A DNA stretch of 64,000 bases from Candidatus Nomurabacteria bacterium. GTDB taxonomy: Bacteria > Patescibacteriota > Minisyncoccia > Phycocordibacterales > UBA9973. Under the pieces are notes generated by a model, which was not told the DNA's origin, made no database searches, and was given only the letters and a program-made list of their open reading frames with translations. A program made the position numbers and the translations under genes. The stretch is taken from NCBI GenBank assembly GCA_016699365.1, contig CP064973.1:64195-128194 (forward strand), read 5' to 3'. Numbering within the stretch: position 1 is the stretch's first letter; each line of letters opens with the position of its first letter. This document shows positions 1-60,521 of this stretch, in pieces.

Positions 1-1631
1 ACGATATCAAGAAGCTTCGCAGATACGATAGGATCTCCGTTTTGAGGTTTCAATAGATTTTTATTTGAAGCCATCAAGTCACGAGCCTCGTTTTGAGCAT
101 CATTTGAAAGAGGTAAGTAAACAGCCATCTGGTCTCCGTCGAAGTCAGCGTTGAATCCTGTACAAACAAGTGGGTGAACTTGAATAGCATTACCTTCGAT
201 TAGAACTGGATTGAAAGCTTGAATACCAAGTCTGTGAAGTGTAGGAGCGCGGTTCAACATCACATATTTACCTTGAATTGCCTCTTCTAGAATTGCCCAA
301 ACTTCTGGAACTCCTTCTTCAATCAATTTGTTTGCTCCACGTATGTTGAAAGCAAGTTCATTTTTTAGAATTTTTGAAATTATGAATGGTCTGAATAGCT
401 CAAGTGCCATGTGCTTTGGTAGACCACACTGGTTTAGTTTAAGCTGAGGACCCACAACGATAACTGAGCGTCCTGAATAGTCTACGCGCTTACCAAGAAG
501 GTTTTGACGAAATAGACCTTGTTTACTTTTTAGGTTATCAGAAAGAGATTTAAGTGCTCGTTTTTGAGACTGAGAAACTGCCTGAGAATCATTTTGTTTT
601 GCAATTGAGTTATCTATAAGCGCATCTACTGCTTCTTGTAGAATACGTTTTTCGTTACGCAAGATAACATCTGGTGCTCCAATCTCTTTTAGTTTCTTTA
701 GACGATTGTTTCGGTTTATAACGCGACGATATAGATCGTTTAGATCACTAGTTGCATGCCTACCTCCATCAAGAGCAACCATTGGTCGCAATGCTGGTGG
801 AATAACAGGTATAACAGAGAGGAACATCCACTCTGGACGAATCTTTGAATAGATCATTGAACGAAGTAGTGACATACGGCGCTCTAGCTTTTCTTTATCG
901 ATAGTACTTGCCTTTTCAGACATCTCTTCTGTTTGCTTTTTCAATTTTTCTAAATCAAGAGATTTAAATATATTGAAAATAGCCTCAGCTCCAATAGCTG
1001 CTTCAAAACAGATACCGTACTTCAATGAGAAGTGGTGGTAAGATATTTCGTTCAATACTTTACCAGTATGAATTTCAGCAATTTCTTTCTTTGTATTTAC
1101 AAGAAGATTTTTAAGTTTTTCACGAGTCTCCTCATCTTCAATACTCTTAACCTTTGCCTTGTATTCACTTTCTATATTTTTTATGATTTTAGCCTTTTCT
1201 TCTTCATGAACTTTAGTGATGATATATCCAGCAAAGTAAATTACTTTTTCTAAGTCAGAAACTGGGATATTTAGAAGTATAGACATACGAGATGGAACTC
1301 CACGCAAGAACCAAATATGAGCAACTGGACTTGCAAGCTCAATATGTCCCATACGTTCACGTCGAACTATAGACTTTGTAACTTCAACTCCACACTTTTC
1401 ACATATAATATCCTTGTAACGAATACGTCTGTATTTACCACAGTAACATTCATAGTCTTTTTCTGGACCGAAAACTCGCTCATCGAAAAGACCTCCACGT
1501 TCTGAACGTCCAGTTCGGTAGTTTATAGTTTCAGGTTTTGTAACCTCTCCATAAGACCAATCGCGTATATTTTCAGGTGAAGCCAGTTTGAGTGTTATGT
1601 AGTCAAAGTCACTTGTATCAATTGTTTTCAT
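1..1631 (-). CDS. rpoC: DNA-directed RNA polymerase beta' subunit, N-terminal part (gene continues beyond the window start)
   Basis: Minus-strand translation from the ATG at 1631 gives [56 protein letters not shown]... and further on ...[11 protein letters not shown] (catalytic Mg motif). Lies immediately downstream of rpoB in the canonical order. Not in the ORF track because there is no stop in the window. Confidence 0.9.
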
Positions 1632-1651
1632 AATTTTTATTTTTTAGATTA

Positions 1652-4600
1652 CTAAGCGCCGTTTAATTTTTCTTTAGTTCGACCCTTCTTTTTAAGATCT
1701 ACATTGAGTGACAACCCTCTCAAGTAATTTAACAATACATTGAATGATGCTGGAGCGTTCGGCGGTAGTATTTCTTCACCCTTGATAATCGAATCGAATG
1801 TTGCAGAACGTCCCATGATATCGTCAGATTTTATAGTGATCATCTCACGAAGTATGTGTGATGCTCCGTAACCTTCCAGTGCCCAGACTTCCATCTCTCC
1901 GAATCTTTGTCCTCCACCTTGAGCTTTACCTCCAAGCGGCTGTTGTGTAATAAGTGAGTATGCTCCAATAGAACGCATGTGAATCTTGTCTTCAACCATG
2001 TGGTGAAGTTTCAAAATATACATGTAACCGACAGCAATATCTTGCTCAAATTCTTCCCCAGTTCTTCCATCAAAGAGTTTCATTTTTCCACTTTCTGGCA
2101 TTCCAGCTTTTACAAGTTCGCCTTTGATTTCTTGAATAGTTGCTCCACAAAACGATGGTACAACAGCTTGGTATCCAAGTGCGTTAGCGGCATAACCCAA
2201 GTGCATCTCTAGGATTTGTCCCAAGTTCATACGAGATGGAACTCCAAGTGGCGTAAGCACTATATCTATAGGAGTACCGTCAGCCATAAATGGCATTTCT
2301 TCTTCTGGTAAGATAATTGAGATAACACCTTTGTTACCGTGACGTCCTGCAAGTTTGTCTCCAACTGAGATGTTTCGGATTTGTGCAATTTCAATTACAA
2401 CTTTTTTAATGATTCCACTTTCCAAGTTGTGTCCTTGATCACGAGAAAAGATTTTTACTCCTATAATACGTCCACGTTTTCCGTGTTCCATACGAAGTGA
2501 AGTGTCTTTTACATCACGAGCTTTTTCAGCAAAGATAGATCTTAGCAAGCGCTCTTCTGCAGTAAGCTCTGTCTCACCTTTTGGAGTAATTTTTCCAACA
2601 AGAATATCATTTTCACGAACTTCCGCTCCAACACGAACTATACCGTCTTCGTCTAGATCTTTTAGTTTTATTTCTCCAACGTTTGGAATATCACGAGTTG
2701 TTATTTCTGGTCCGAGTTTTGTATCACGAACTATACAAACGAACTCTTCAATATATATAGAAGTGAACTTACTTTCTTTTACAAGACGCTCAGATAGAAT
2801 AATCGCATCTTCGTAGTTAGATCCGTTCCATGACATGAAAGCAATCAATGCATTTTGTCCTAAAGCAATTTGTCCATGTGCTGTTGTTGAAGTATCAGCC
2901 AAAATCATACCCTTCTTCACCTTGTCTCCTATAGAAACACTAGGGCGCTGATGGAATGAACTAAAGTTGTTTGTTCTCTGGAAAGACATAAGATTGTAGT
3001 CTTCTTTTTTACCCTTAGAATTTTCAACAGTTATTTTTTTTGCGTCAACATATGTAACTTCTCCGTCTTCTTTTGCAACTATTAGTCTTCCTGAATATCG
3101 TGAAGCGAGTTCTTCCATACCTGTAGCCACAAGTGGAGCTTCTGGGCGAACACATGCCATAGCTTGTTTCTGCATATTACTTCCCATGAGTGCACGGTTA
3201 GCGTCATCGTTTTCCAAGAAAGGAATCATAGAAGTAGCAATAGAGAAAGCTTGGTTTGTTGATACGTCTATATAATCTACTTCTGCGCGCGCGATAAGTC
3301 CTGGCTCAGTTTTTACACGAGCTTCTACCATGTCTTCTACTATCTTTCCGTCTTCTGTGTATTTAATACCAGAGTGAGCAATGTTGTATTGCTCTTCTTC
3401 TAGAGCATTTAGATAAACTATTTCTTTTGTGATTACACCATTTTTTACTTTCGCGTAAGGTGTTTCAATAATACCGAAATCATTCACTCGAGCATAAGTA
3501 GACAAGTGAAGTATGAGACCGATGTTCGGACCTTCTGGAGTGTGAATAGGACAAACACGACCGTAGTGAGATGTGTGCACGTCACGAACCTCTAGTCCTG
3601 CGCGTTCACGTGTTAGTCCTCCGGGTCCAAGTGCAGATAAAATACGCAAGTGTTCAATCTCGTTTAGTACGTTTTCTTGTGACATGAACTGAGAAAGTTG
3701 GTTCGTTGTGAAAAATTCTTTTATGCGTGCCTGAAGTGGGCGTTGGTTGATTATGTTTATCGGCAAAGCTGTAGCAACGTCGATTGTAGACATACGATCC
3801 TGAATATTTCTCTTGATCTGTGTCATACCAACACGAATTTTTTGCTGGAGCAATTCACCAACATATCTAACACGACGTTGACCCAAGTGGTCGATATCAT
3901 CTGCTTTAGAGTTTGGAGTATTATTTAGAGATATTATGTGTTCAACAATTACCATCAAATCTTCTTTTGAGATTGTTCGGCGTTCTAGGTCTTTGTCTGT
4001 CATTGGCTTACCAAAACGCTTGTTGAATCTAAATCTTCCAACTGGAGATAGGTCGTAGCGTTCAGATGAAAACAGAGAATTTATGAATTCTTTTGCATTT
4101 TCTGTAGTAGCTAGGTCTCCATCTCTAAGACGCTTGTATATTTCTATAAAAGATTCATCAGATGTCTTTGCTGGATCTTTTTCTATTGAGAGTTTCAATA
4201 TATGACGAACTTCGTCAGTAGCTGCAGCAGCGAGCATTGACTCATCAGTAAAACCTAAAACACGAAGAAGCGAAGTAATCGAGAACTTTCGCTTTTTATC
4301 AATACGCACATATAAAACACCATCTGAATCAGATTCAATCTCAATCCATACACCACGAGCTGGGATTATTTTTGCACCAAAAAGTTTTTTACCTTTTAGA
4401 TCAAGGTCTGTGAAAAATACACCGAAACTTCTTGCAAGCTGAGAAACTATAACGCGTTCTACTCCGTTTATTATAAAAGTCCCATGATCTGTCATGAGTG
4501 GTATATCAGCAAGGAAAATTTCTTGTTCCTTTGATGATCCACCTAGAGTTTTGTTCATAAGCTTTACTCGTGCTTTTAGTTGAGCATCGTAAGTAAGCTT

Positions 4601-4843
4601 GTTTGCTTTTGCATAATATTCATCAAACTTTGGTTCACCAAGAGAAAATGATGTGAACTCAAGCATGAATTTTTTCTCTGAGTAATCGTTTATCGGAGAA
4701 AATTCTTTGAACACTTCTTTTAGGCCGTGTTCTATGAGCCATTTGTATGAGGCAAGTTGTGTCTCAAGTAAGTTTGGAAATTCGACCAGTGGTTTTTTGT
4801 ATTTTGAAAAATACTTCTTCTCGATTTTTGTTTTTGTCGACAT
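1652..4843 (-). CDS. rpoB: DNA-directed RNA polymerase beta subunit (short 1063-aa form)
   Basis: 1063-aa ORF with typical RpoB blocks (...GPGGLTRERAGLEVRDVHTSHYGRVCPIHTPEGPNIGLI..., ...MPFMADGTPIDIVLTPLGVPSRMN...). Followed by rpoC. Confidence 0.95.
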   Translation of the reverse strand: MSTKTKIEKKYFSKYKKPLVEFPNLLETQLASYKWLIEHGLKEVFKEFSPINDYSEKKFMLEFTSFSLGEPKFDEYYAKANKLTYDAQLKARVKLMNKTLGGSSKEQEIFLADIPLMTDHGTFIINGVERVIVSQLARSFGVFFTDLDLKGKKLFGAKIIPARGVWIEIESDSDGVLYVRIDKKRKFSITSLLRVLGFTDESMLAAAATDEVRHILKLSIEKDPAKTSDESFIEIYKRLRDGDLATTENAKEFINSLFSSERYDLSPVGRFRFNKRFGKPMTDKDLERRTISKEDLMVIVEHIISLNNTPNSKADDIDHLGQRRVRYVGELLQQKIRVGMTQIKRNIQDRMSTIDVATALPINIINQRPLQARIKEFFTTNQLSQFMSQENVLNEIEHLRILSALGPGGLTRERAGLEVRDVHTSHYGRVCPIHTPEGPNIGLILHLSTYARVNDFGIIETPYAKVKNGVITKEIVYLNALEEEQYNIAHSGIKYTEDGKIVEDMVEARVKTEPGLIARAEVDYIDVSTNQAFSIATSMIPFLENDDANRALMGSNMQKQAMACVRPEAPLVATGMEELASRYSGRLIVAKEDGEVTYVDAKKITVENSKGKKEDYNLMSFQRTNNFSSFHQRPSVSIGDKVKKGMILADTSTTAHGQIALGQNALIAFMSWNGSNYEDAIILSERLVKESKFTSIYIEEFVCIVRDTKLGPEITTRDIPNVGEIKLKDLDEDGIVRVGAEVRENDILVGKITPKGETELTAEERLLRSIFAEKARDVKDTSLRMEHGKRGRIIGVKIFSRDQGHNLESGIIKKVVIEIAQIRNISVGDKLAGRHGNKGVISIILPEEEMPFMADGTPIDIVLTPLGVPSRMNLGQILEMHLGYAANALGYQAVVPSFCGATIQEIKGELVKAGMPESGKMKLFDGRTGEEFEQDIAVGYMYILKLHHMVEDKIHMRSIGAYSLITQQPLGGKAQGGGQRFGEMEVWALEGYGASHILREMITIKSDDIMGRSATFDSIIKGEEILPPNAPASFNVLLNYLRGLSLNVDLKKKGRTKEKLNGA

Positions 4844-6243: not shown

Positions 6244-7353
6244 TTACAGATTACCTCTTGTTGCCTGCTCTCTCTCGATTGCTTCAAAAAGAGCTTTGAA
6301 ATTCCCTTTACCAAAAGTCTTTGCTCCACGGCGCTGGATAATTTCGAAGAAAAGCGTTGGCCTGTCTGTCACTGGCTTTGTAAAAAGCTGGAGCATATAC
6401 CCTTCATCATCATGATCTACAAGGATATTGAGCTTCTTGATCATCTCGAAATCCTCCTCTATTGGGAATTTTACCCTCTCAAGGACGTCTTCATAATATG
6501 TTTCTGGTACATGTAAAAACTCAACTCCTCTTCTTCGTAATTGAGATACGGTATACAGAATGTCATCTGTTGCTAGTGCGATATGTTGCACTCCGGAACC
6601 ATGATAGAAATCCAAGTATTCTTGAATTTGAGATTTATTTTTCCTGCTTTCGGCCGGCTCATTGATTGGAAATTTTATATATCCATTGCCATTTGCAACA
6701 ACCTTGCTCATAAGCGCAGAATACTCAGTTGAGATGTCATTGTCGTCGTATGTAACAAGTAATTTAAAACCCATTACATCCTCGTAGAACTTAACCCACT
6801 CATTCATTTTTCCGAGCTCTACGTTCCCCACACAATGATCTACATATTGAAGACCTACTGTTGATACAACACCGTTGCGATCAATTGGTTTATACCCCGG
6901 CATAAAAATGCCCTTGTATTTACTTCGGTCAACAAATTTGTGAATTGTATCTCCATATGTTTTGATGCCAGAAACTGAAACACTTCCCTCGCTTACATCA
7001 CAAAATTCTGTAGGAGACATGAACTTGATCGCACCTCGTGCAATAGTTTCTTCAAAACTTTTTACGGCATTTGGTACCTTAAGAGCAATAACCTTCACTC
7101 CATCACCATGGATCCTCACATGCTGTGAGATTTCGCTTTCAGGATCAAATGAAGTTGTAAAAACCAGGACGATTTTATTCTGCTTCAAAACATAACTTGC
7201 CTTGTCACGAACGCCGGTTTCAAGCCCAGCATATGCAACAATTTCAAATCCAAAAGCATTTTTATAGTAATATGCCGCCTGCTTAGCATTGCCAACATAA
7301 AACTCAATGTGGTCTGTGCCGAGTATCGGCAGAAAATCTTTTTGTTCTTCCAT
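6244..7353 (-). CDS. hppD: 4-hydroxyphenylpyruvate dioxygenase
   Basis: 369 aa. N-terminal HIEFYVGNAKQAAYYYKNAFGFE and the two-VOC-domain layout typical of HPPD. Confidence 0.8.
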   Translation of the reverse strand: MEEQKDFLPILGTDHIEFYVGNAKQAAYYYKNAFGFEIVAYAGLETGVRDKASYVLKQNKIVLVFTTSFDPESEISQHVRIHGDGVKVIALKVPNAVKSFEETIARGAIKFMSPTEFCDVSEGSVSVSGIKTYGDTIHKFVDRSKYKGIFMPGYKPIDRNGVVSTVGLQYVDHCVGNVELGKMNEWVKFYEDVMGFKLLVTYDDNDISTEYSALMSKVVANGNGYIKFPINEPAESRKNKSQIQEYLDFYHGSGVQHIALATDDILYTVSQLRRRGVEFLHVPETYYEDVLERVKFPIEEDFEMIKKLNILVDHDDEGYMLQLFTKPVTDRPTLFFEIIQRRGAKTFGKGNFKALFEAIEREQATRGNL

Positions 7354-10361: not shown

Positions 10362-12356
10362 ATGAAAAATCCAAAAAATAAGCAAGTTACCCGTTTCCAA
10401 GCTAAATCGGCTTCAGATCCAAAAAAACCAATTCACACTAAAAAATCTCCAAAAACAGAGATTATAGAAGGGGTAATATCAGTATCTTCTCGAGGAGATG
10501 GGTATTTGCGTATTCGTGAACCAAAAGAAGACATAGCTATCATCCGAGGAGGACTAAACACTGCCCTACACGGAGATCTAGTGAGTGTCCGCGTATTGCC
10601 TATGCGCCAAAAAGGTTCTCGTATGGGTGAAGTCGAAAAGATTATCTCTCGCGGACGACCTGGCTTTTCTGGGGTGCTAGAAGAAAGTGAGGGCATGTTC
10701 TTCCTGGTTCCTTCTGATACAAAAATGTATACAGACATAATAATCCCGAAAGAAAAATTAAATGGAGCAAAAAATGGAGACAAGGTTTTTGGAGTTATTA
10801 GTTCATGGGAAGATCCAAAAAAATCTCCGATAGGAAAAATTGAAAAAGTCTTGGGTAGACCATATGAAAACAATGCAGAGATGCAAGGAATCGCACTTGA
10901 GCGCGGTTTTGACAGTGACTTCCCTATCGAAGTTACAAACGAAGCAAAGCACCTCTATGACAAATCTACGCATGACGAGGGAGTTCGTCGCGATATGCGA
11001 AAAGTTCCAACCTTTACTATTGATCCGTATGACGCAAAAGACTTTGACGACGCTCTTTCTTTTGTAGAACTACCTGATGGAACATACGAAATAGGAATTC
11101 ATATTGCAGACGTATCACATTTTGTCCGACCAGGAACAGCTCTAGATGAAGAAGCATATAAACGCGGAACTTCTGTGTATCTAGTCGATCGCACAATCCC
11201 CATGCTTCCTGATGTTTTATCAAACGACTTATGTAGTCTTAAGCCAAATGTGGACAGACTTTCTATGAGTGCGATTTTTATAATGAACAAAAGTGGAGCT
11301 GTTCTAAATGAATGGTATGGACGCACTATTATACATTCTATTAGACGCTTCACATACGAAGAGGCTCAAGAAGTTTTAAATACAAAAAAAGGAGATTTTG
11401 CTCGTGAGCTTGAAATTATGAATAGTATTGCAAAGAAGCTACTAAAAGCTCGCTACGACAAGGGAGCGATGTCTCTTGATCAAGAAGAAGTAAAATTCAA
11501 GCTCGATGAAAAAGGTGTGCCTATATCAGTCGTACGTAAGGTTCGTACAGATTCTCACAAACTAATCGAGGAATTTATGTTGCTCGCAAACAGAAAAGTT
11601 GCTGAATTTATATCTGGAAGCGGAAAACGTAAAGACAGAGTTTTTGTGTACAGAGTTCATGATGTCCCAGATAAAATGAGAATTGCAGACCTAGCATTCT
11701 TTTTGAAATCACTTGGTTATAAACTTCCACTTCATGAAGGACTTCCAAAACCAGAAGCGTTAAACAAATTACTCGAGGAACTGGATGGTCATCCTGAAAA
11801 AAATACGATTCAAACTGCGATTATTCGATCTATGGCCAAGGCTGTTTATTCTACAAAAAATATCGGCCACTACGGTCTTGCTTTTGATTTCTATACTCAC
11901 TTTACTTCACCTATCAGACGTTATCCAGATGTCATAGTTCACAGACTGCTTATGGAGTATTTGGCAAATAGAGAAATCAAAAAAGATTCTTGGCAAACTT
12001 ATCAAGAGAGCGCACTCTATGCTTCCGAACGTGAAAAACATGCTACAGATGCAGAACGTTCATCTATAAAATACAAACAAGTTGAATATATGTCTTCACA
12101 TGTAGGAGAAATATTTGAAGGTATAATTTCTGGAGTTACAGAATGGGGTCTATATGTAGAAGAAAAGGAAACAAAGTGCGAAGGTATGGTAAAATTGAGA
12201 GATCTTGAGGGAGATATATTTATATTCGACGAAAAACACATGGCTATAGTTGGTACTAAAACCAAGAAGCGCTACCGCATTGGGAATAGTATAAAAATCA
12301 AAGTTGTAAACGCAAACCTCGAGAAAAAAATAATTGATTACGCACTAGTTGCATAA
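10362..12356 (+). CDS. rnr: ribonuclease R (RNB-family 3'-5' exoribonuclease)
   Basis: 664 aa. RNB catalytic region (IDPYDAKDFDDALSF...HIADVSHFV...VYLVDRTIPMLP) and a C-terminal S1-like region. Confidence 0.85.
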   Translation: MKNPKNKQVTRFQAKSASDPKKPIHTKKSPKTEIIEGVISVSSRGDGYLRIREPKEDIAIIRGGLNTALHGDLVSVRVLPMRQKGSRMGEVEKIISRGRPGFSGVLEESEGMFFLVPSDTKMYTDIIIPKEKLNGAKNGDKVFGVISSWEDPKKSPIGKIEKVLGRPYENNAEMQGIALERGFDSDFPIEVTNEAKHLYDKSTHDEGVRRDMRKVPTFTIDPYDAKDFDDALSFVELPDGTYEIGIHIADVSHFVRPGTALDEEAYKRGTSVYLVDRTIPMLPDVLSNDLCSLKPNVDRLSMSAIFIMNKSGAVLNEWYGRTIIHSIRRFTYEEAQEVLNTKKGDFARELEIMNSIAKKLLKARYDKGAMSLDQEEVKFKLDEKGVPISVVRKVRTDSHKLIEEFMLLANRKVAEFISGSGKRKDRVFVYRVHDVPDKMRIADLAFFLKSLGYKLPLHEGLPKPEALNKLLEELDGHPEKNTIQTAIIRSMAKAVYSTKNIGHYGLAFDFYTHFTSPIRRYPDVIVHRLLMEYLANREIKKDSWQTYQESALYASEREKHATDAERSSIKYKQVEYMSSHVGEIFEGIISGVTEWGLYVEEKETKCEGMVKLRDLEGDIFIFDEKHMAIVGTKTKKRYRIGNSIKIKVVNANLEKKIIDYALVA

Positions 12357-12371: not shown

Positions 12372-14720
12372 ATGCAAAAAAGAAGAATAAAACAAGTTTT
12401 TCTGGTATCCGGATTAACAATCGGGTCTGTTTTGTTTGGAATATTTGTAGCTATTTTTATATTTCAAGGATCTGTAAGGGCTTTCACATCAGCTAAGGCT
12501 TTTGGTGAACAGCTTAGTATTTTAGGAGACAGGATACGCGGTATAGACAACGATGTACTCAGTGAAAATTTTATAAATAAAGACACTCTATCTACGGAAG
12601 AACTATCGCCAGTAGAAATAACGCTTGGAAATATAAGTGATGGAATGTACACACCTCCGGAAACAGGAAAAGTAATCCGCATAAATCTTGAGAGTATGGA
12701 GCTTACTCAATATGAAGACGGAAAAATAATAAAAAATATTCCAGTTCTATCAAAAGGAAAAACAGGTTCTTATTGGGAGACACCAGGAGGAAAGTATAGT
12801 GTTTTATATAAAGAAGAAAGTCATCTTTCAAGTTTTGGTAAAGTATGGATGCCATGGAGCATGCAATTTTTTGGAAACTACTTTATCCACGGATGGCCAG
12901 TGGATAATTCAGGCAAACCTCTAGCAGACATAGGATATTCAGGTGGATGTATAAGACTAGACACATCAGATGCAAAAGCTTTGTATGAATGGGCAGACAT
13001 AGGGACAACTGTTTCTATATACAGCACCACGAGCGAAGAACCAACTTCCGTAGGAGAATCATCTCCTTACTTTTTGAAAAATCCAAAACTACTACCAAAA
13101 GTCTCGGCTAGTGCATATATAGTAGGAGATGTTTCTTCGGGAGATATTATCTTGGAAAAAAATATGGATGAAGTCCACCCTATTGCATCTGTATCAAAAC
13201 TCATGACTGCACTAACAGCACTAGACGTAGTTCATCAACGCGGAACATCTACTGTATCAAAAAAAGCTCTTTCTACTTATGGAGAAAATGGTGGTTTTTA
13301 TATAGGAGAAAAAATAAAAAATAGCGATCTCCTGTTCCCTCTTCTTTTAGAATCTTCGAACGATTCTGCAGAAATAATTGCTGAACAAGTCGGGCGCAAT
13401 TATTTTATGCGCGCAATGAACACCAAAGCTTCTTCTATTGGTCTAATACAAACAAATTTTGATGACCCAAGTGGATTGTCAGAAAACAACATATCAACAG
13501 CTAGAGATTTGTTTAAGATGGCTAGATATATACACGAGTTCAAGCACTATGTATACGACATAACCAAGTTAGAAAAATATTCCAACGGAACTCATACATG
13601 GGTAAACACAAATAGATACCTGGGAGAAGAAAATTATGCTGGAGGAAAAACTGGTTACACAAATCCTGCAAAAGAAACGATTGTTGCACTATTTGATGTA
13701 CCTATATCAGAATTTGAAAATAGAACAATTGCAATAATATTATTGCAAAGTTCAGACAGATATGGAGATACAAATGAGCTAATTAGTTACTTAAGAAAAA
13801 ATGTATACAGAGGAGCCAACAGACCAATTGAGATAGTTGAAAATACAGAAGAACCAAGCAGAAAAGTCAGCTTAGCTTTTGGTGGAGATGTAATGCTCGA
13901 CAGAGGTGTAAGAAGTTCTGTAGATAGAAATTTTGCAGGAGATTATTCTAGATTGTTCGAAAATCTAATTCCCTTAAAAGAAGCGGATATAAGTTTCATA
14001 AATCTTGAAGGACCAGTTTCAGACACCGGCAACAATGTAGGAAGTAAATATTCTTTTCGTATGGATCCTAAAGTTTTAGATGTTATGAGGTATGCGGGCA
14101 TAGATATTGTATCTTTTGCAAACAACCATGTCGGCGACTGGAATAAAAGCGCTTTCAATGACACTCTATCAAGACTAAGAGAATCTGGAATAAAATACAC
14201 AGGTGCTGGAAGCAACCGATCTGTCGCAATAGAGCCAACAATAATAGAAAAAAATGGATTGAAAATCGGATTCTTGGGATTCTCTGATGTTGGCCCAGAT
14301 TGGGTAAAGGCTACAGATACTTCATCTGGAATATTGATAGCAAGCGATCCAGATTTGGAAAATATAATAAGAAACGCAAATCAAAAAGTAGATATACTAG
14401 CTGTGTCTTTTCACTGGGGTACTGAATATTCAGAACATAACGCGCGACAAAAAACTCTAGCTTACAAAGCAGTAGAAAACGGTGCTGAGTTAGTTGTAGG
14501 ACACCATCCTCATGTCATACAAGATACAGAGGAATACAAAGGAGCACTCATAATGTACAGTCTTGGAAACCTAATATTTGATCAATACTTCTCAGAGGAA
14601 ACAATGCAAGGCTTAATAGTGGAAGTCAGCTTCTCTGGAGACAAACTAGAAAGTTACCAAAAAAAACTTGTTAAATTGAATTCTTATTTCCAACCCCAAG
14701 AAATCTTGGATTACCCATAA
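12372..14720 (+). CDS. membrane-anchored tri-domain cell-wall enzyme: L,D-transpeptidase (YkuD) + D-Ala-D-Ala carboxypeptidase (S11/PBP5-like) + CapA/PgsA-type metallophosphatase
   Basis: 782 aa. N-terminal TM helix. YkuD motif HGWPV...GYSGGCIRLD. S11 motifs SVSKLMT (SxxK), SSND (SxN), GGKTGYT (KTG). C-terminal CapA-like blocks VSFANNHVGDW, LAVSFHWGTEY, GHHPHVIQ. Confidence 0.75.
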   Translation: MQKRRIKQVFLVSGLTIGSVLFGIFVAIFIFQGSVRAFTSAKAFGEQLSILGDRIRGIDNDVLSENFINKDTLSTEELSPVEITLGNISDGMYTPPETGKVIRINLESMELTQYEDGKIIKNIPVLSKGKTGSYWETPGGKYSVLYKEESHLSSFGKVWMPWSMQFFGNYFIHGWPVDNSGKPLADIGYSGGCIRLDTSDAKALYEWADIGTTVSIYSTTSEEPTSVGESSPYFLKNPKLLPKVSASAYIVGDVSSGDIILEKNMDEVHPIASVSKLMTALTALDVVHQRGTSTVSKKALSTYGENGGFYIGEKIKNSDLLFPLLLESSNDSAEIIAEQVGRNYFMRAMNTKASSIGLIQTNFDDPSGLSENNISTARDLFKMARYIHEFKHYVYDITKLEKYSNGTHTWVNTNRYLGEENYAGGKTGYTNPAKETIVALFDVPISEFENRTIAIILLQSSDRYGDTNELISYLRKNVYRGANRPIEIVENTEEPSRKVSLAFGGDVMLDRGVRSSVDRNFAGDYSRLFENLIPLKEADISFINLEGPVSDTGNNVGSKYSFRMDPKVLDVMRYAGIDIVSFANNHVGDWNKSAFNDTLSRLRESGIKYTGAGSNRSVAIEPTIIEKNGLKIGFLGFSDVGPDWVKATDTSSGILIASDPDLENIIRNANQKVDILAVSFHWGTEYSEHNARQKTLAYKAVENGAELVVGHHPHVIQDTEEYKGALIMYSLGNLIFDQYFSEETMQGLIVEVSFSGDKLESYQKKLVKLNSYFQPQEILDYP

Positions 14721-14785
14721 AGATACTTTTATCTGGTATAATTAGTCCGTCGCATTACTCGTTTAGAAACGTGTTTTAACTCTAT

Positions 14786-16993
14786 ATGAAAAATTTTTTA
14801 AAAGATCCAGAATATAACTCAATCAAAAGTATTTTTCTGGTTGTGTTTGTGATTGGAGTAGGTTATTTTATAGGTCAATTTGCAATAAACAGAAGCAATT
14901 ACCTAAAAGCACTAGTAAACCCAGAAGACGTAGCCACAATAAGTATAAATTTAAATTCAATTGGAGGAGCTGATTCTGTAGAACCAGGGATATATGGTAT
15001 TCATATGGCAAAGCTCTTAGATGAAGCCGGTGTTGCTGATGGATGGTTATCTACTATAGAAGACTTCACTAGTGACTTAGAGCCTCACTATGCCAGATTT
15101 TTTGCCGGAGGCGAAGTGAGTTACTATCATTTTAAGACTACATACCTAGAGACAGGCAGACTCTCTGCAGCTGAGATAGCAAGTCTTGCTCCTGGAAACG
15201 AAATCCGCGGAAATGGATTTATTATTGCGGACAGAGAGGACGAAGAAGCTAATGGGAACACTGGAGAACTAGACCAGCTTCTAGCAACAAAACCTAGATA
15301 TGGAAATCTATCTTATTTAGAAGGATTCCAAAATACAAAATCTCGTAATTTTATTAGAGATTACGTTGATATATTAGATGCAGGAAATTCTAAATCTATG
15401 TTTGTTCTAAACCTAAGATATTCAACACCACAAGCAGAATTGGAGAAAATAGATTTCTTGATAGAAGAGGGTGTAGAAATAATAGGCATCGAATGCGGCA
15501 ATGAAGCATACGCAAAAACTCACCCTTGGTACAACACAGGCAACCCAACGATAAATGCTCCTCTATCTGTAGAGGAATACTTAGATACTTGTGATACTTA
15601 TAGAGATCTAATACTTGCTTCACACCCTGGCATACCGTTTGCAGTTTCAGCTGCTCCAAAAAAGAATTTTGAAGAAGGAGCAGAATGGGAAGCTAGTGAC
15701 TTCAATACAGAATGGAATATTTCCCTGGCAACAAAAATGAACGAGCATGGGTATGACAATTACACCGTTCACTTCTACGCACCTTTCAATAGCTGTGAAG
15801 ATGAAGTCGCCACAGGAGATAGAGATTCTATATTTACATGTGGACTCGAAGAAATACGCGATCTACGAAATACAGTAGAGGGACCAAATGGAACAGTAAG
15901 ATTACCTGTAATATTTAGTTGGTATAAAGAAAATTTCCCAGGAAAAGATATGTGGTTTACTGAATGGAACATAAACCAAGATCCTCTAAATGGAACAGAT
16001 GCAAAATACGCAAACTCAATACTTCATGCTGCTTTTGTTACGAATGTAATGAATATTATAAATATGCAAAATGCATATAATGGAAACTTTATTCCATTTG
16101 CAAACTTACATACATATGTAACCGATGGCGGAAACGCAATGATAAATCTACATGTATCAAAAGGAGTTGGTAACAGCGAACCAGAGGATACTGGTGAATT
16201 TGTAAGACGAACACCGTACTTTGCTTATATGTCTATGAAAGAAATATTTCAAGACGACTACAAACCACTTGAAACTACATTTACAATAAATACTCCGGGA
16301 TTAGACCCAAATGACGTAACAATATATGGATATAAAAAAGATAATGGAGACATAGCATTGGCGTTTACAAATCTCACAAGTAAAACTTTACACATAGATG
16401 AACTCACAATCGACGGAGACGCCGTGGACTTAAATAGCTCTAGTGCAAATCTATATTCAATCGACGGAGACGCCAATTACGCAAGTAGAGGAAAGACTGA
16501 GTTCGCTGTAAATCCTGGACATGAGGTTACAATAAGAGAAAATGACTTCTATTCAAGTATCACAAATCTTTATATACCATCTTTTGGAATATCTACAGTA
16601 ACTATAAACACAGATATCGTAGAAGATAATCCTGGTTGTACTATACTGGAAAATATAACTGGAAACTGTGATGAAGATATCAATGAACCAGAAAACGATA
16701 CAGAAGCACCTACTATTGAATTAGCTGGACCTGCAGATAAATTCATCCTAAACGGAGCTACAACAGTAGTAGCAGCAAGCGCAGCAGACAACATCGGTAT
16801 ACAGAAGGTAGAGTTCTATTATGGCAGTACAGCGGATATGAAAAATCTAATTGCAACAGATGATACAGCTCCTTACAAATCTACGTGGAATACAGCCCAA
16901 TTACCTGTAGGTACATATAGAGTTGGAGCAAAAGCTTACGACACTTCTGGAAATACCACTTTCAGTAATTATGTGACAGTAAAAAAACAATAA
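14786..16993 (+). CDS. membrane-anchored putative glycoside hydrolase (clan GH-A-like TIM barrel) with C-terminal Ig-like domain
   Basis: 735 aa. N-terminal TM. GIECGNEAY and WFTEWN resemble the acid/base and nucleophile Glu motifs of clan GH-A enzymes. The C-terminal ~90 aa (…VEFYYGSTADMKNLIATDDTAPYKSTWNTAQLPVGTYRVGAKAYDTSGN…) is a typical Ig-like domain of secreted hydrolases. Confidence 0.5.
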   Translation: MKNFLKDPEYNSIKSIFLVVFVIGVGYFIGQFAINRSNYLKALVNPEDVATISINLNSIGGADSVEPGIYGIHMAKLLDEAGVADGWLSTIEDFTSDLEPHYARFFAGGEVSYYHFKTTYLETGRLSAAEIASLAPGNEIRGNGFIIADREDEEANGNTGELDQLLATKPRYGNLSYLEGFQNTKSRNFIRDYVDILDAGNSKSMFVLNLRYSTPQAELEKIDFLIEEGVEIIGIECGNEAYAKTHPWYNTGNPTINAPLSVEEYLDTCDTYRDLILASHPGIPFAVSAAPKKNFEEGAEWEASDFNTEWNISLATKMNEHGYDNYTVHFYAPFNSCEDEVATGDRDSIFTCGLEEIRDLRNTVEGPNGTVRLPVIFSWYKENFPGKDMWFTEWNINQDPLNGTDAKYANSILHAAFVTNVMNIINMQNAYNGNFIPFANLHTYVTDGGNAMINLHVSKGVGNSEPEDTGEFVRRTPYFAYMSMKEIFQDDYKPLETTFTINTPGLDPNDVTIYGYKKDNGDIALAFTNLTSKTLHIDELTIDGDAVDLNSSSANLYSIDGDANYASRGKTEFAVNPGHEVTIRENDFYSSITNLYIPSFGISTVTINTDIVEDNPGCTILENITGNCDEDINEPENDTEAPTIELAGPADKFILNGATTVVAASAADNIGIQKVEFYYGSTADMKNLIATDDTAPYKSTWNTAQLPVGTYRVGAKAYDTSGNTTFSNYVTVKKQ

Positions 16994-17000
16994 AAAAATA

Positions 17001-17033
17001 AAAACGGAATTTTTTAAAATTCCGTTTTTTTAT
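17001..17033. terminator. bidirectional rho-independent terminator
   Basis: aacggaatttt-ttaa-aaattccgtt hairpin flanked by A/T runs, between convergent genes. Confidence 0.6.
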
Positions 17034-20083: not shown

Positions 20084-20980
20084 TTATTTTGTAATTTTTT
20101 CAATAGACTTAGCAAGTAGAGGCAGGATATCATCATATGTTTTGATATCTCCTATCTGACTTAAACTAAACCATTTTGCATCATCAAGTCCACCACTTGA
20201 AGTCAGCGCAAGCTCCTGATACGGTGCTTCAACCAAGAAGTAATGAACTTCTTTTCTGATCTTTCCTTTCTCAGGATGCGAAGCAATATACTCATTTTGC
20301 CCTAGCTTTTCTTTGACTACTATAGGCAATCCTACCTCGTCTTTAATTTCTCGAACAACAGCAACAGCCTCGTCTTCACCGTCCTCTACACCACCCTTAG
20401 ATAGAGTCCAGTAACCAAAAACATCATGTACAAGTGCAAAATATACTGCACCTTCGTGGCGAGCATATATAACAGCACCTGCCTTTTTTTCAGTAGGTAA
20501 TTTTGTTATATCAACAGGTGTGTCATCTTTTTTCTTTTTAGAAGTTTGATCCTTTCCCGGTTCTCCTATTTCTTTGTATACAGCACCTAAAACTCCGTTT
20601 ACAAATTTACTAGATGTTTCACCTCCAAAAGCTTTCGCAAGTTCAATTGCTTCATTGATTGCTACTTTAGGCGGGACTTCTTCTCTGTTACCAAATAAGA
20701 GCTCAGCTAAACCAAGTCTTAGAATATTTCTATCCACAACTGATATTTTATCAATAGGCCAATCTGGAGCAGCTTTAGTAATTATTTCATCTATTATTGA
20801 ACGCTTCTTTAGCACAAGTTCAGCTAGATTTTCAATAAAAGTAAAATCATCTAAGCCTGGACCAAATTCGCTTTCATTGCGCTTCAATATAGGGACGATT
20901 ATGTCGTCTTGTTTACCGTTGAAATCCCACTCAAAGAGTGATTGGAGAACTATTGATCTTGAAAGGTGCCTGTTTGCCAT
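20084..20980 (-). CDS. nusB: NusB antitermination factor fused to a C-terminal NUDIX hydrolase domain
   Basis: Residues ~1-140 match NusB (…PPKVAINEAIELAKAFGGETSSKFVNGVLGAVYKEIGEP). The C-terminal ~150 aa carry a Nudix box (SKGGVEDGEDEAVAVVREIKDEVG). Confidence 0.75.
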   Translation of the reverse strand: MANRHLSRSIVLQSLFEWDFNGKQDDIIVPILKRNESEFGPGLDDFTFIENLAELVLKKRSIIDEIITKAAPDWPIDKISVVDRNILRLGLAELLFGNREEVPPKVAINEAIELAKAFGGETSSKFVNGVLGAVYKEIGEPGKDQTSKKKKDDTPVDITKLPTEKKAGAVIYARHEGAVYFALVHDVFGYWTLSKGGVEDGEDEAVAVVREIKDEVGLPIVVKEKLGQNEYIASHPEKGKIRKEVHYFLVEAPYQELALTSSGGLDDAKWFSLSQIGDIKTYDDILPLLAKSIEKITK

Positions 20981-30948: not shown

Positions 30949-32757
30949 CTACCGAATCTCGAAACCTTTATCTTGGAGAGATTTGGTTATAGAGTTCATG
31001 GATTCTGCGACTTCTATATCTGTAAGCGTCCTATCAAAACTCTGAAAAACCAACCTAAAAGCTAGACTTTTTTTGCCGTCTTTTTCAAATGAATCTAGTA
31101 AATCTGGACCTCTAACAACTAAATCCCCCATGTTCTCTCTAATTACTGGAGAAACATCTATAGAATCAACGTTGGATGGAACCCACATTGAAATATCACG
31201 TACAATAAATGGATATTGAGACCAGGGAGAAAAGTTTTCAGATTTTAACTCTAAACTATTAGGTAAAACAGAATCGTACGAACTTCCGATTTCTATATCC
31301 TTTGTATATTCTTCTAGGGTCATTTCTTGTACCCCTTTTTTATCCATCCAAGCAACATGTGTTTCTTCAACACCTGCAGCTGGAAAAACATTACCAACTT
31401 CAAATATTTTTATTTCAGATTCTCCAAGTAGTGGCGCGTTAAGTCTATTGAGCTCATACGCTTGCTTCAATCCATCACTTAGATTTGTCCGGAGCGCTTC
31501 CTTGCCCTTTGCTCCATAAGCAACATACACTTCGCCTTTTTTTGTAAATGCATAAGTATAGACTTCTCTAAATCTATCTTCGGTAAGTTTTTTCTTTGCT
31601 GATAAAATTCTATAAAAAATTTCATTTGTTTTCGGCTTGAAATCTATTATCGGTAATTCTGGTAAAACCCTATCGTATCCAAGCACTCTTCCAATCTCCT
31701 CTACCAAATCATGGGGACCAATAAGATCCAAGCGAAGTACAGATGGAGAGACGACAAAAGCCTCCCCTTCTCTACGAAAACTAATTCTCAAACGCATTAA
31801 AACATTCTCGATCTCTTCCTCTTTAAAATTTGATCCGAGTTTTTTGTTGATATAGTCAGTTGTAATTTCAATATCTTGTCTTGTCTCCCATTTCTGCTTG
31901 TCAGGAAACACATCAACAATATCTTCGAACTCTGCATCCGGACACATTTCAAATATAAGTGCTGACAGCTCTCGCATTGCATATTCTGCACGCACAGGAG
32001 ATAGATCATTCTCAAATCTTTTTATTGCATCTGTAAAAAGTCCCATTCCACGGCCAGTCTTTCGCACAGTCACCGGGTCGAAGTTTGCTACTTCTAGTAT
32101 TATATCTGCTGTATTCTCGTCTACCTCAGCTCGTGTTCCACCTTTCACTCCAGCAATCGCCAAAACATTATCTTCTCCGTCGGTAATCACCAAGTCGGTT
32201 TCTTTTAAATCTTTTTCTTCACCGCCAAGAAGGCTCACCTTTTTTTGACTGCCTGTTTCTTTTATTCGTATTGTACTTCCAACTTTTTTAGCATCAAATA
32301 CATGAGTTGGGTTTCCACAATCAAACATCACAATATTTGTTGCATCTACGACATTGTTTATACTTTTCTGTCCTACTGACTCAAGATGCTTCACTACCCA
32401 CTCCGGACTTGGACCAACTTTTACATTTCGAACTATTCGTCCCATATATCTGCGGCATTTATCATTTTCAATTTTCACTTCAAGACTTGTTGGTTTTGAC
32501 GTAGGAATTTTGTACATATCAACTGGACTCTTGTATTCGATATCGAGAAGCGCAGAAAGTTCTTGTGCGACCCCCTGATGATTTAGTAAATCGTGGGCAC
32601 GATTTGGCAAGATATTGATATCGAAAATAGTATCTCCATCTGACATTTTATCCATACTCTCTACTTCACAGAGATGAAATGTAAAAACATCCCAGAGCTT
32701 ATCGGGTTCACAAATGTCAGGTATATACGATTTGAGCCAGTTGTAAGATATTTTCAT
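30949..32757 (-). CDS. pheT: phenylalanine--tRNA ligase beta subunit (short, lacks N-terminal tRNA-binding domain)
   Basis: 602 aa. Starts MKISYNWLKSYIP (typical PheT start). B3/B4 and B5 regions present and C-terminal FDX-ACB-like end. About 200 aa shorter than E. coli PheT. Confidence 0.85.
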   Translation of the reverse strand: MKISYNWLKSYIPDICEPDKLWDVFTFHLCEVESMDKMSDGDTIFDINILPNRAHDLLNHQGVAQELSALLDIEYKSPVDMYKIPTSKPTSLEVKIENDKCRRYMGRIVRNVKVGPSPEWVVKHLESVGQKSINNVVDATNIVMFDCGNPTHVFDAKKVGSTIRIKETGSQKKVSLLGGEEKDLKETDLVITDGEDNVLAIAGVKGGTRAEVDENTADIILEVANFDPVTVRKTGRGMGLFTDAIKRFENDLSPVRAEYAMRELSALIFEMCPDAEFEDIVDVFPDKQKWETRQDIEITTDYINKKLGSNFKEEEIENVLMRLRISFRREGEAFVVSPSVLRLDLIGPHDLVEEIGRVLGYDRVLPELPIIDFKPKTNEIFYRILSAKKKLTEDRFREVYTYAFTKKGEVYVAYGAKGKEALRTNLSDGLKQAYELNRLNAPLLGESEIKIFEVGNVFPAAGVEETHVAWMDKKGVQEMTLEEYTKDIEIGSSYDSVLPNSLELKSENFSPWSQYPFIVRDISMWVPSNVDSIDVSPVIRENMGDLVVRGPDLLDSFEKDGKKSLAFRLVFQSFDRTLTDIEVAESMNSITKSLQDKGFEIR

Positions 32758-32764: not shown

Positions 32765-33739
32765 CTATTTTAATTCTCCAATCATCAATTCTGCCTTGTT
32801 GTCTATATCTGAAAGTTTTTTGTTAAAAATTTGCAAAAACTTTTCTGGTAAAAGTGCTTTAAAATTGTGGTCTCTGCTAAAATACAGCCCATTACCATCT
32901 CTTCCTTGAGAAAGAAAATATTTTAAATCAGAATATCCCGCTCCAAAATAAAACTCAATTTTATTGTCTTCAATAGTAACTGAAGATCTACCTATTATAT
33001 GCCTGCCCTCTTTATACCCTTCTCCGTGTTCAATTTTATCAGTAGTATCACTATTGTTGTATTCATAGAAAGCCTCCAAAAAAGCACCGTCTATCATATC
33101 TCCCAATTTATGATAAATCTCGCGGAGCTTTGGTTCTTTTGATTCTTTTATATTTTTTTCAAAAACAGTTTCTTTGTGGTATATACCTGTTGGATACCTA
33201 ACCGGCCAATTTTCTCTACCTTCTGGCGTATCCACAGACAATTCAAACAAATCTCTATCTATAGAATCCACTCTCCAATGCAAAATAGTTGAAACACCTC
33301 GCAGGTTTTGATAATCAGGGTTTTCTATATTCAAGGTTTGAATCAATTCATTTTTCATCTTCTTTAGATCTTCAATATTTTGATGAACCAATTCCTCTGA
33401 CGAACTCATATCGAAAACTTCATCTGTATCAGAAAAATTCTCCTGCATTTCTGATATATTTGAGACTCCTCTTTCAGCCAGCAATTTCTTTTTTTCTTCA
33501 TCTTCAAAAAGAGGTAGTAAATTTTCCAAAGCATTTTTAAATTTTACCCTGTTGCCTGCAAGCTCAGCTCTTTTGGCTTTTATATCTTCAATAAGTTGTA
33601 GGTACTGGGTCTTTTGCTCTTCCAGCTTGGACATATCTTCTCTAACTTCAGATAAAATATTTTCTTTTTTAGTTTGAATTACTTCTTCTTCTGCTGTCTT
33701 AAAGCTATTTAGTTTTCCAAAAATCGAATTTTCGTTCAT
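32765..33739 (-). CDS. hypothetical protein with N-terminal coiled-coil, inserted between pheS and pheT
   Basis: 324-aa ORF with no recognised motif. Confidence 0.45.
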   Translation of the reverse strand: MNENSIFGKLNSFKTAEEEVIQTKKENILSEVREDMSKLEEQKTQYLQLIEDIKAKRAELAGNRVKFKNALENLLPLFEDEEKKKLLAERGVSNISEMQENFSDTDEVFDMSSSEELVHQNIEDLKKMKNELIQTLNIENPDYQNLRGVSTILHWRVDSIDRDLFELSVDTPEGRENWPVRYPTGIYHKETVFEKNIKESKEPKLREIYHKLGDMIDGAFLEAFYEYNNSDTTDKIEHGEGYKEGRHIIGRSSVTIEDNKIEFYFGAGYSDLKYFLSQGRDGNGLYFSRDHNFKALLPEKFLQIFNKKLSDIDNKAELMIGELK

Positions 33740-33761: not shown

Positions 33762-34502
33762 TTAAAACTGATTTATTCTCAAATCTCCCTGATAAAGGAA
33801 TCGTACATCTGGAATATTGTGTTTAATCATTAAAATACGATCAAGCCCTCCACCGAATGCGAAGCCTTGGACTTTTTCCGGATCTAGCCCTGCGTTCCGT
33901 AAAACATTTGGGTGGAGCATTCCACCTCCCATCATCTCGAGCCACTTGCCGTTAAACTTTGCATGTACTTCCACTGACGGCTCAGTAAACGGAAAGAAGC
34001 TCGGACGAAACTGTATCTCAGTCTCAGAGCCAAGCATGGTCTGGTAGAATTTAATCAAAACTGCCTTCATATTTGCGAGTGTAATATTTTCTCCAATCAT
34101 AACTCCATCTATCTGATGAAATTGTGCTTCGTGAGTGATGTCTGTTGCTTCGTTACGAAAAGTTTTTCCGATTGCGATATATCCAGCTTCCTTTATTCCA
34201 TCTTTTGCCATTTTTTCAATCATACGCATAGAGACACTTGTCGTGTGTGTACGCAAAACTGGACGAGAGCTTCGTTCGCCACTTTGTGCTTTTGCAATCT
34301 CCTCAGGAGTTTGCTTTATCCAAAAAGTATCTTGCATGTCGCGCGCTGGATGGTCTTTTGAAACATTTAGTGCATCGAAGTTGTACCATTCGTGTTCAAG
34401 TTCCGGCCCAACAGCCATTTCAAAACCGAGCTCTGAAAAAACCCGAATTGCATCTTCCGCAAGGAGTGTCATTGGATGAAGTTGTCCTTTAGATATCTGC
34501 AT
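33762..34502 (-). CDS. pheS: phenylalanine--tRNA ligase alpha subunit, catalytic core only
   Basis: 246 aa. Class II motifs (FRNEATDITHEAQFHQIDG, FRPSFFPFTEPSVEV, GFAFGGGLDRI). Begins at the position equivalent to E. coli residue ~100, so the N-terminal helical domain is absent. Confidence 0.85.
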   Translation of the reverse strand: MQISKGQLHPMTLLAEDAIRVFSELGFEMAVGPELEHEWYNFDALNVSKDHPARDMQDTFWIKQTPEEIAKAQSGERSSRPVLRTHTTSVSMRMIEKMAKDGIKEAGYIAIGKTFRNEATDITHEAQFHQIDGVMIGENITLANMKAVLIKFYQTMLGSETEIQFRPSFFPFTEPSVEVHAKFNGKWLEMMGGGMLHPNVLRNAGLDPEKVQGFAFGGGLDRILMIKHNIPDVRFLYQGDLRINQF

Positions 34503-59254: not shown

Positions 59255-59297
59255 CGAGTTTTCTCGATGTTTTTATTTTTAGAAATATATACTTTGT

Positions 59298-59402
59298 TCT
59301 GGCGACTACCTACTTTTGCCCTAAGACTATCATCGGCACAACAGCGCTTAACTTCTTTGTTCGGAATGGAAAAAGGTGTGACCACTGCGTCAAATCACCA
59401 GA
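59298..59402 (-). rRNA. rrf: 5S ribosomal RNA
   Basis: Minus strand TCTGGTGATTTGACGCAGTGGTCACACC...CCGAACAAAGAAGTTAAGCGCTGTTGTGCCGATGATAGT...GTCGCCAGA aligns with bacterial 5S (CCGAAC...GAAGTGAAAC...GCCGATGGTAGT). Ends pair as helix I. Confidence 0.8.
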
Positions 59403-60299: not shown

Positions 60300-60521
60300 A
60301 GGTGCCGAACTCCGCCGTCGATATGAACTCTTAGGCGGAACTAGCCTGTTATCCCCGGAGTAGCTTCTATCCGTTAATCTTCGGCCGCATCTAATGCGTA
60401 CCATCGGTTCACTAGGTTCTGCTTTCGCACCTGCTCGAGATGTCCCTCTTACAGTCAAGCCAGCTTGTGCCCTTACACTATCGGCACGATTTCCATACGC
60501 GCCTAGCTGACCTTAATAAAC

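Follow-up and report, generated by a model that had tools for sequence, protein, structure and literature searches.

A YkuD-S11-CapA fusion protein of Candidatus Nomurabacteria belongs to a Patescibacteria CapA clade recurrently fused to peptidoglycan peptidases

S11 peptidases cleave D-Ala-D-Ala, and L,D-transpeptidases of the YkuD family use tetrapeptide donors. The two families act as partners in Escherichia coli (DacA/PBP5 and LdtD) and in Mycobacterium tuberculosis (DacB and LdtMt2); in both cases the S11 enzyme makes the tetrapeptide donor needed by the YkuD enzyme, and the partners are separate proteins. Here, we describe a gene of Candidatus Nomurabacteria bacterium that unites the same two enzyme families, which could follow the same logic, in one polypeptide together with a third domain, CapA. 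This gene, open reading frame (ORF) A (12372-14720, + strand), is directly followed in the ORF list by ORF B (14786-16993, + strand). Both lie in the window, by which we mean the whole 64,000-nt stretch of DNA that was analyzed (CP064973.1, assembly GCA_016699365.1, positions 64,195-128,194 of the forward strand), out of a genome of roughly 705 kb. All position numbers are window coordinates.

The third domain is of the PGA_cap family, to which CapA and PgsA of the poly-γ-glutamate (PGA) systems capBCADE (plasmid pXO2, gene order capB-capC-capA-capD-capE) and pgsBCA also belong. These proteins share with ORF A an N-terminal membrane anchor and an outward domain, but authentic CapA stands alone, with about 410 amino acids (aa), whereas in ORF A the CapA domain forms the C-terminal part of a peptidase fusion of 782 aa. 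Deletion of pgsA lowers the D-glutamate content of PGA from 75% to 5% (PMC6029982), and CapA was termed "function-unknown" by the authors of the work on MslH, who propose an epimerase role for it (PMC8179263). Genetic and isotope evidence points in this direction for PgsA/CapA, as a proposal rather than a proof (PMC6029982, PMC8179263). MslH itself (PDB 8gq9) depends on Ca(II) and epimerizes the C-terminal Trp of a lasso peptide; the substrate carboxylate is positioned at the metal, and the α-proton is exchanged by two dyads, H88/D91 and H295/D11 (PMC10406935). For this family, peptide epimerization is the only biochemistry that has been established or suggested (PMC10406935, PMC8179263, PMC6029982).

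The 782-aa product of ORF A is identical to GenBank QQR76723.1, deposited as "CapA family protein", and three Pfam matches above their gathering thresholds cover most of its length. The YkuD match (PF03734, 1.9e-17; 64.7 bits against a cut-off of 23.4) extends over aa 100-216 (12669-13019) and over profile positions 2-146 of 146. Peptidase_S11 (PF00768, 5.3e-37; 128 bits against 27.6) was matched at aa 242-439 within a serine DD-peptidase domain of aa 242-480 (13095-13811), and PGA_cap (PF09587, 4.9e-67; 226.5 bits against 27) at aa 501-738 within a calcineurin-fold domain of aa 496-778 (13857-14705). There are no internal stops. The preliminary description of this DNA, made from the sequence alone, had presented ORF A as a single membrane-anchored fusion of these three modules, and this holds: the frame is uninterrupted and carries an N-terminal transmembrane (TM) anchor, neither frameshifts nor stops were found at the domain boundaries, and the catalytic motifs that it had quoted are present and conserved across the 64 homologues over which residue conservation was counted. 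The cluster at 90% identity contains six members of 782 aa from NCBI, ENA and Logan assemblies, and the three-domain architecture is kept in orthologues whose identity ranges from 90% to 41%. We rejected the possibility that the fusion arose through a frameshift or mis-assembly, since the ORF is intact in independent assemblies and its architecture is kept over this range. The ratio of nonsynonymous to synonymous substitution rates (dN/dS) against the 90%-identical orthologue was 0.042 for YkuD, 0.030 for S11 and 0.038 for CapA, and 0.22 for the anchor and linker. Across comparisons, the values per domain were about 0.03-0.09; these ratios are semi-quantitative only, because dS was 1 or more in every comparison. 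Each of the three domains is thus under strong purifying selection.

The N-terminus, a basic MQKRRIKQ followed by 23 hydrophobic residues, has the form of a signal-anchor (about aa 9-31, 12396-12464). According to the positive-inside rule, the basic residues ahead of the anchor would place the catalytic domains on the outer side of the membrane. Structure prediction of the full-length protein with AlphaFold2 (AF2), which the preliminary description had called for, yielded an anchor helix (residues 2-32), disordered linkers at 51-87 and 484-491, and three confident domains (mean predicted local distance difference test, pLDDT, 85.8; predicted template modeling score, pTM, 0.48). The disordered linkers and the pTM value suggest that the domains are arranged as independent beads on a string.

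The YkuD module, present in 52 of the 64 homologues, has its His173 in all 52 and its Cys193, in the segment S190-G-G-C193-I-R195 of the HG...SGGCIRL signature, in 40; its PDB match was ErfK/YbiS (5bmq, 1e-9). The other 12 relatives have Ser, Gly, Asp or a deletion in place of the catalytic Cys (e.g., P0037) while keeping His173 and the remainder of the domain, and in these lineages YkuD may act as a non-catalytic peptidoglycan-binding domain. In the S11 module, the motifs S273VSK276 (S in 62/64, K in 64/64), S328SN330 and K426TG428 are conserved in 62-64 of the 64 homologues, except for the variable middle residue of KxG. The PDB matches of this module were DacB (3mfd, 3e-28) and a PBP7-type endopeptidase (6muq, 1.6e-23), and both types were also recovered by Foldseek. 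It had been described as a PBP5-like carboxypeptidase. The profile and motifs confirm its membership of S11, but not the likeness to PBP5, a type marked by a C-terminal β-sandwich (PBP5_C) and an amphipathic C-terminal anchor: ORF A, unlike PBP5, has no Pfam match to the PBP5_C domain, the S11 fold ending at about residue 480 and being followed by the linker and CapA, and the best NCBIfam match is a PbpG-type endopeptidase model, under its cut-off. Since the PBP5 C-terminal domain is missing and the DacB and PBP7 types match equally well, endopeptidase activity appears just as possible as carboxypeptidase activity. The supply of tetrapeptide donors by S11 to YkuD in cis would fit the established biochemistry of L,D-transpeptidases.

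The three modules had been regarded as normally separate, with the implication that their fusion is unusual. However, the fusion proved to be common and conserved in Patescibacteria, and had already been deposited under the name given above. Relatives were found in at least 596 species genomes (one genome per species scanned), labeled almost without exception as Paceibacterota, Nomurabacteria, Vogelbacteria, Yanofskybacteria or other Patescibacteria. Among the best 120 protein clusters, about 79 have the YkuD, S11 and PGA_cap domains together, about 28 have S11 and PGA_cap, and 13 have an added VanY. We also scanned 89 fetched loci (numbered with the prefix L) with hidden Markov models of YkuD, S11 and CapA built from our own alignment. 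CapA was present alone, as a protein of about 330-390 aa, in 54 of them, as S11-CapA in 22, and as YkuD-S11-CapA in 10 besides the window; four genes had YkuD-S11 without CapA and one had CapA-CapA. In some loci the modules are encoded by adjacent genes: YkuD-S11 next to CapA in L044 and L085, YkuD next to CapA in L075, and S11 next to CapA in L057. Every one of these split CapA genes has its own Met start and its own TM anchor, which indicates that they are real genes rather than the products of frameshifts. Relatives of unusual length displayed further combinations, namely CapA-VanY (five species), CapA-Peptidase_M23, S11-VanY-CapA, S11-CapA-VanY, S11-CapA-CapA-VanY and one Memo-CapA. The last of these (L082, about 3092-4843) joins a Memo-like domain (PF01875) to CapA in a metagenome-assembled genome (MAG) labeled Gammaproteobacteria, and the CapA-Peptidase_M23 gene (L059, about 1500-3350) is from an unclassified MAG.

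CapA is thus the hub of the architectures in this family. Its partners, S11, VanY, YkuD and M23, represent four peptidoglycan peptidase families of unrelated mechanism, and three of these act on the stem peptide at its C-terminal end. As they are joined to CapA in different orders, several independent fusion events are implied. By the Rosetta-stone argument, recurrent fusion to four such families ties the CapA clade to the ends of peptidoglycan stem peptides, and CapA itself probably also acts on wall peptide stems. In a distant relative (L008), a gene with Amidase_3 and PG_binding_1 domains overlaps the stop codon of the three-domain gene. All the domains are of known families and the protein already had a generically named GenBank entry; the gene as such is therefore no discovery. 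The new element is that one Patescibacteria CapA clade has repeatedly been fused, in different orders, to S11, VanY, YkuD and M23, or adjoins them as a separate gene. We found no published description of these fusions in a weak literature search, in which the term "capa" also matched "capacity" and "capabilities". For surveys of the candidate phyla radiation (CPR), we would caution against reading these genes as capsule or resistance (VanY, PBP) genes. A protein of about 660 aa is encoded downstream of stand-alone CapA genes at four loci (L061, 6735-8717, and three others); inspected by eye, it resembles a family-5 solute-binding protein with a peptidoglycan-binding-type segment.

The CapA domain is organized in the blocks GD506VM, NLE546, ANN585H586xxD589, H681WGxE685Y, GHH712PH714 and SLGNxxFD737Q, with D506, E546, N585-H586, D589, H681, H712 and H714 each conserved in 63-64 of the 64 homologues. 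It is 32.5% identical to pXO2 CapA of Bacillus anthracis over 86% of the domain (E = 1e-31), and the alignment showed GDxM, NxE, ANNHxxD, HWGxEY, GHHPH and SLGNxxFDQ to be common to both, which marks it as a genuine PGA_cap member at the sequence level. MslH was the only PDB match by sequence (9e-15) and also the top Foldseek match of the full three-domain model (3.3e-21), above all penicillin-binding proteins and phosphatases. Residues D11, E44, N87, H88, D91, H259 and H295 of MslH align with D506, E546, N585, H586, D589, H681 and H714 of ORF A. The two proteins thus have in common the calcineurin-like fold, the GDxM motif, three of the four Ca ligands (E44, N87 and H259) and both His/Asp dyads, H88/D91 and H295/D11 of MslH corresponding to H586/D589 and H714/D506 of ORF A, invariant in 64/64. 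Motif I is G-D506-V-M508, with Met in 63/64, rather than the phosphatase DxH, and MslH likewise has GDCM. Metal site 1 therefore seems to be degenerate in both, because GDxM replaces DxH, the source of the second site-1 ligand. The domain had been called a CapA/PgsA-type metallophosphatase. This remains appropriate for the fold, but not for the activity, given GDVM instead of DxH and an epimerase as the closest structure. The two proteins differ in other respects: they are only about 19% identical in the CapA domain, and MslH is a cytoplasmic enzyme that tailors ribosomally made peptides subject to post-translational modification (RiPPs) and needs a leader-peptide-binding partner, whereas the ORF A domain is predicted to be extracytoplasmic and is fused to peptidoglycan peptidases.

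We consider ORF A to be, very probably, a housekeeping enzyme for the processing of peptidoglycan stem peptides in Paceibacteria-type Patescibacteria. Three active sites, held outside the membrane on flexible linkers from one N-terminal anchor, would process the C-terminal ends of the stems. The S11 module would remove D-Ala5, as a DD-carboxypeptidase, or cut 4-3 cross-links, as a DD-endopeptidase, and YkuD, through Cys193, would convert the resulting tetrapeptides into 3-3 cross-links or exchange or remove residue 4. CapA, as the ancestral core of the family, would bind the free C-terminal carboxylate of the trimmed stem at a single metal site and modify the terminal residue. The likeliest such reaction would be Cα epimerization through the dyads His586/Asp589 and His714/Asp506, proposed by analogy with MslH, in which it has been demonstrated, and with PgsA/CapA, for which it has been proposed. 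The assignment of the CapA module as an epimerase is tentative, and the chances are against it; the combined interpretation, a stem-peptide processing enzyme with an epimerase module, we judge to be moderately probable. It would be a further step, and a rather unlikely one, for the Patescibacteria CapA to be an extracytoplasmic epimerase that flips whichever C-terminal residue of the stem is exposed by the fused DD-, LD- or endopeptidase module. If this were true, stem-peptide epimerization would be an activity not known in cell-wall biology, and the large and mostly uncharacterized PGA_cap family would be one of C-terminal peptide epimerases generally, rather than of capsule or phosphatase proteins. 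The modular CapA hub thus provides a testable hypothesis, stem-peptide epimerization with named active-site residues, that bears on this poorly understood family and on wall maturation in ultra-small bacteria with minimal genomes.

Several observations weigh against this interpretation. The modules are dispensable one by one, as illustrated by the YkuD-S11 gene without CapA in L003 and the lack of the whole gene in L001, and the catalytic Cys of YkuD has been lost in the 12 relatives mentioned above. The low pTM of the ORF A model lends no support to a fixed geometry for substrate channeling between the modules, which we infer together with the CapA reaction. Epimerase activity has been demonstrated for MslH only, that of PgsA/CapA being a proposal, and ORF A scores 63.9 bits against the NCBIfam MslH equivalog (NF038314), with a cut-off of 700. 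The Ca ligand His261 of MslH has no counterpart in ORF A, and His712 (64/64) and Glu685 (63/64), invariant in the ORF A family, are absent from MslH. The CapA metal site may therefore differ from that of MslH, and might even hold two metals. Finally, the search for CapB and CapC covered 64 kb of a genome of about 705 kb, and a PGA synthetase could be encoded elsewhere in it.

It is possible, although doubtful, that CapA is instead a metallo-hydrolase, for instance a phosphodiesterase trimming lipid-pyrophosphate carriers or phosphodiester-linked polymers of the wall, or else a scaffold without catalytic activity that keeps the peptidases where the wall is being made. In favor are the calcineurin-like fold, the conservation of a full M2-type ligand set (E546, N585, H681 and H712), with D506 and H714 as potential ligands of a second metal, and the two invariant residues missing from MslH, H712 and E685. 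Moreover, direct proof of epimerase activity has never been given for an authentic CapA (PMC8179263). However, the motif-I His of DxH is replaced by Met in 63/64, as in the one-metal MslH, no phosphatase ranked above MslH in the PDB sequence or fold searches, and the fusion partners are nearly all stem-peptide peptidases, with no teichoic-acid or lipid-carrier enzymes among them. A scaffold, for its part, is difficult to reconcile with active-site residues that are all near-invariant.

The downstream gene, ORF B, encodes a 735-aa protein deposited as "hypothetical protein" (GenBank QQR76724.1). Pfam detected only a Big_7 bacterial Ig-like domain in it (PF17957, aa 642-713, 16709-16924; 7.5e-14, 52.6 bits against a cut-off of 24.1). 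In the AF2 model (pLDDT 86.1, pTM 0.76), a TM helix is followed by a (β/α)8 barrel and a β-sandwich, after which a disordered linker leads to the Ig domain. The barrel (aa about 46-492, 14921-16261) was delimited from the model with DSSP, the invariant columns and Foldseek, and the β-sandwich (aa about 493-612, 16262-16621), from the model and Foldseek, packs behind it as in the glycoside hydrolase (GH) families GH51, GH79 and GH30. In Foldseek, GH51 ranked first (5e-21), followed by GH79, GH30, GH39 and glucocerebrosidase, all of clan GH-A and with 7-14% identity; fold matches with E = 5e-21 to 1e-13 included the GH51 α-L-arabinofuranosidase 2vrk, the GH79 β-glucuronidase/heparanase structures 3vny and 7pr9, and members of GH30 and GH39, at 10-14% identity. 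Invariant in 20 ORF B homologues were R104, N209, N239-E240 after β4, H329/Y331 on β6 and E393 on β7, with E240 in a G-N-E motif following strand 232-236 and E393 in a T-E-W motif within strand 388-396. The Asn-Glu pair after β4, the Glu on β7 and the β-sandwich behind the barrel are all features of the GH51, GH79, GH30 and GH39 enzymes, and the model supports a clan GH-A-like barrel with the acid/base and nucleophile Glu residues in place. The fold match, E240 and E393, and Big_7 thus bear out the view of ORF B as a membrane-anchored, GH-A-like hydrolase carrying an Ig domain at its C-terminus.

Unlike those enzymes, ORF B has a TM anchor, a Big_7 tail and no significant Pfam GH family, and belongs to a tiny family confined to Patescibacteria. 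None of 20 members of the family had a significant match to a Pfam GH family, the best being Glyco_hydro_cc (0.044) and GH30C (0.12). One search returned 21 matches and another about nine representative clusters. The full-length profile search was swamped by giant tandem-Big_7 proteins, so that its counts (36127, 14591 and 3245) are uninformative on the GH-like family; only about nine of the 150 listed representatives matched in the catalytic region. Larger relatives add a BD-FAE feruloyl/acetyl-xylan-type esterase, fn3 or DUF642, and these modules suggest that the substrate is a decorated polysaccharide. No CAZy family of peptidoglycan glycan hydrolases is known to belong to clan GH-A. ORF B is probably a separate surface glycosidase that acts on a polysaccharide other than peptidoglycan and is linked to ORF A by nothing more than their common chromosomal slot.

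ORF A and ORF B had been described as a pair forming a compact envelope-editing toolkit, in which, on a co-evolutionary reading, ORF B would cut a glycan or wall polymer while ORF A edits peptides. They are neighbors in the same orientation, no terminator separates them, both products are predicted membrane-anchored ectoenzymes, and genes of the ORF B family always lie directly after the ORF A slot (window, L003, L005, L007, L032, L042, L091 and L092). However, the ORF A family has more than 1800 matches, against the few found for ORF B, which was present in just 10 of the 89 loci. ORF B occurs without an ORF A gene in L001, with a CapA-less ORF A in L003 and with CapA alone in L042, whereas ORF A occurs without ORF B in L009. 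The flanking proteins of L005 are 80-94% identical to those of the window and its ORF A is 82% identical, but its ORF B only 40%; conversely, ORF B reaches 59-63% in L001 and L003, against about 50-55% for their flanks. These conflicting identities indicate that ORF B has been exchanged independently of ORF A. The fusion of its relatives to BD-FAE, fn3 and DUF642, typical of polysaccharide degradation, and the composition of clan GH-A also argue against a role on the wall glycan. In addition, the 65-nt spacer between the two genes contains, when read by eye, an extended -10-like TGgTATAAT (14734-14742, + strand) without a -35 element, which was missed by the consensus promoter scan and is possibly a separate promoter of ORF B. 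The pair does not stand up to the rarity of ORF B, its occurrence without ORF A, its replacement among close relatives and its fusion to esterases elsewhere, and we consider a co-evolved functional pair unlikely. At least two divergent ORF B types occupy the same slot (the window compared with L005, L092, L001 and L003), a pattern that points either to replacement of the cassette or to a surface protein under diversifying selection. In these comparisons, ORF B behaves as a surface cassette that diverges fast and can be exchanged within a conserved slot, and it represents a small, swappable, GH-A-like family without a Pfam assignment.

It is very unlikely that ORF A serves in attack, remodeling or harvesting the wall of a host rather than the cell's own. 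Patescibacteria often live as episymbionts or parasites and show auxotrophies for amino acids, and secreted peptidoglycan peptidases are common weapons, but ORF A is tethered by its N-terminal TM segment with a linker of about 60 residues, is under the strong and uniform purifying selection described above (dN/dS 0.03-0.09) in a conserved housekeeping context, and shows none of the rapid turnover of ORF B. Most improbable of all is that ORF A is the true CapA of a PGA capsule system, with peptidase domains that attach the capsule anchor to peptidoglycan or remodel it: although every family motif is shared with pXO2 CapA at 32.5% identity, and the B. anthracis capsule is joined to peptidoglycan by CapD, encoded beside capA, no homologues of CapB, CapC, CapD or CapE were found among the scanned window ORFs of at least 150 aa or the families recurring within 3 kb in 80 genomes, the gene lies among housekeeping genes (rnr, smc, rnc and nusB) of minimal genomes, and the reading as part of a PGA operon was rejected for want of a CapB, CapC or CapD neighbor.

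The RNase R gene rnr (10362-12356, + strand) ends 15 nt before ORF A, and an RNB/S1 protein is found at the equivalent position in relatives; rnr is probably the first gene of a transcription unit shared with ORF A. A terminator scan of the locus detected no terminator-like site between rnr, ORF A and ORF B. ORF B and SMC are convergent, and a hairpin (17000-17029) with a 13-bp stem and T-runs on both strands lies between their stops; it has the features of a bidirectional terminator-like site closing the rnr-ORF A-ORF B unit. When neighbors were clustered, 31 of 80 species loci had RNase R upstream in the same orientation, the figure used here; a different test (phmmer with the window protein, gap < 400 nt) gave 10 of 86. 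The families recurring within 3 kb in the 80 genomes were RNase R (31/80), SMC (30/80), RNase III, S16, KhpA and TrmD, and the scanned window ORFs were likewise of a housekeeping nature (rpoB, trmD, rnr, smc, rnc, nusB-nudix, rnhB, dnaE, thrS, gyrB, pheST, uvrD-like and secDF).

Other features of the window deserve mention. A NusB-NUDIX fusion of 298 aa (20084-20980, - strand) is found as the same fusion at the same position in L001, L003, L005 and L009. Insertions in rRNA genes are a recognized trait of CPR bacteria. The 23S rRNA gene (59553-63134, - strand) is 3582 nt long, against a model of 2925 nt, and has within it, at 59989-60265 (- strand), a group I intron (Rfam RF00028, 80 bits); a 5S rRNA lies at 59297-59402. 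A 323-aa ORF without a Pfam match (32765-33739, - strand) separates pheS (33762-34502) from a short pheT (30949-32757; 601 aa, with only B3_4, B5 and FDX-ACB), and might correspond to an N-terminal part of PheT that has been split off or replaced. A 418-aa protein with Peptidase_S74 (2.6e-17; 35355-36614, - strand), an intramolecular chaperone of the endosialidase/tail-fiber type, could be a phage-derived fiber- or spike-like protein in a minimal genome. Finally, a 368-aa protein of the glyoxalase/4-hydroxyphenylpyruvate dioxygenase (HPPD) type (6244-7353, - strand; Glyoxalase 3e-22, HPPD N-terminal 7.6e-8) is an unexpected metabolic enzyme for a CPR genome of 705 kb.

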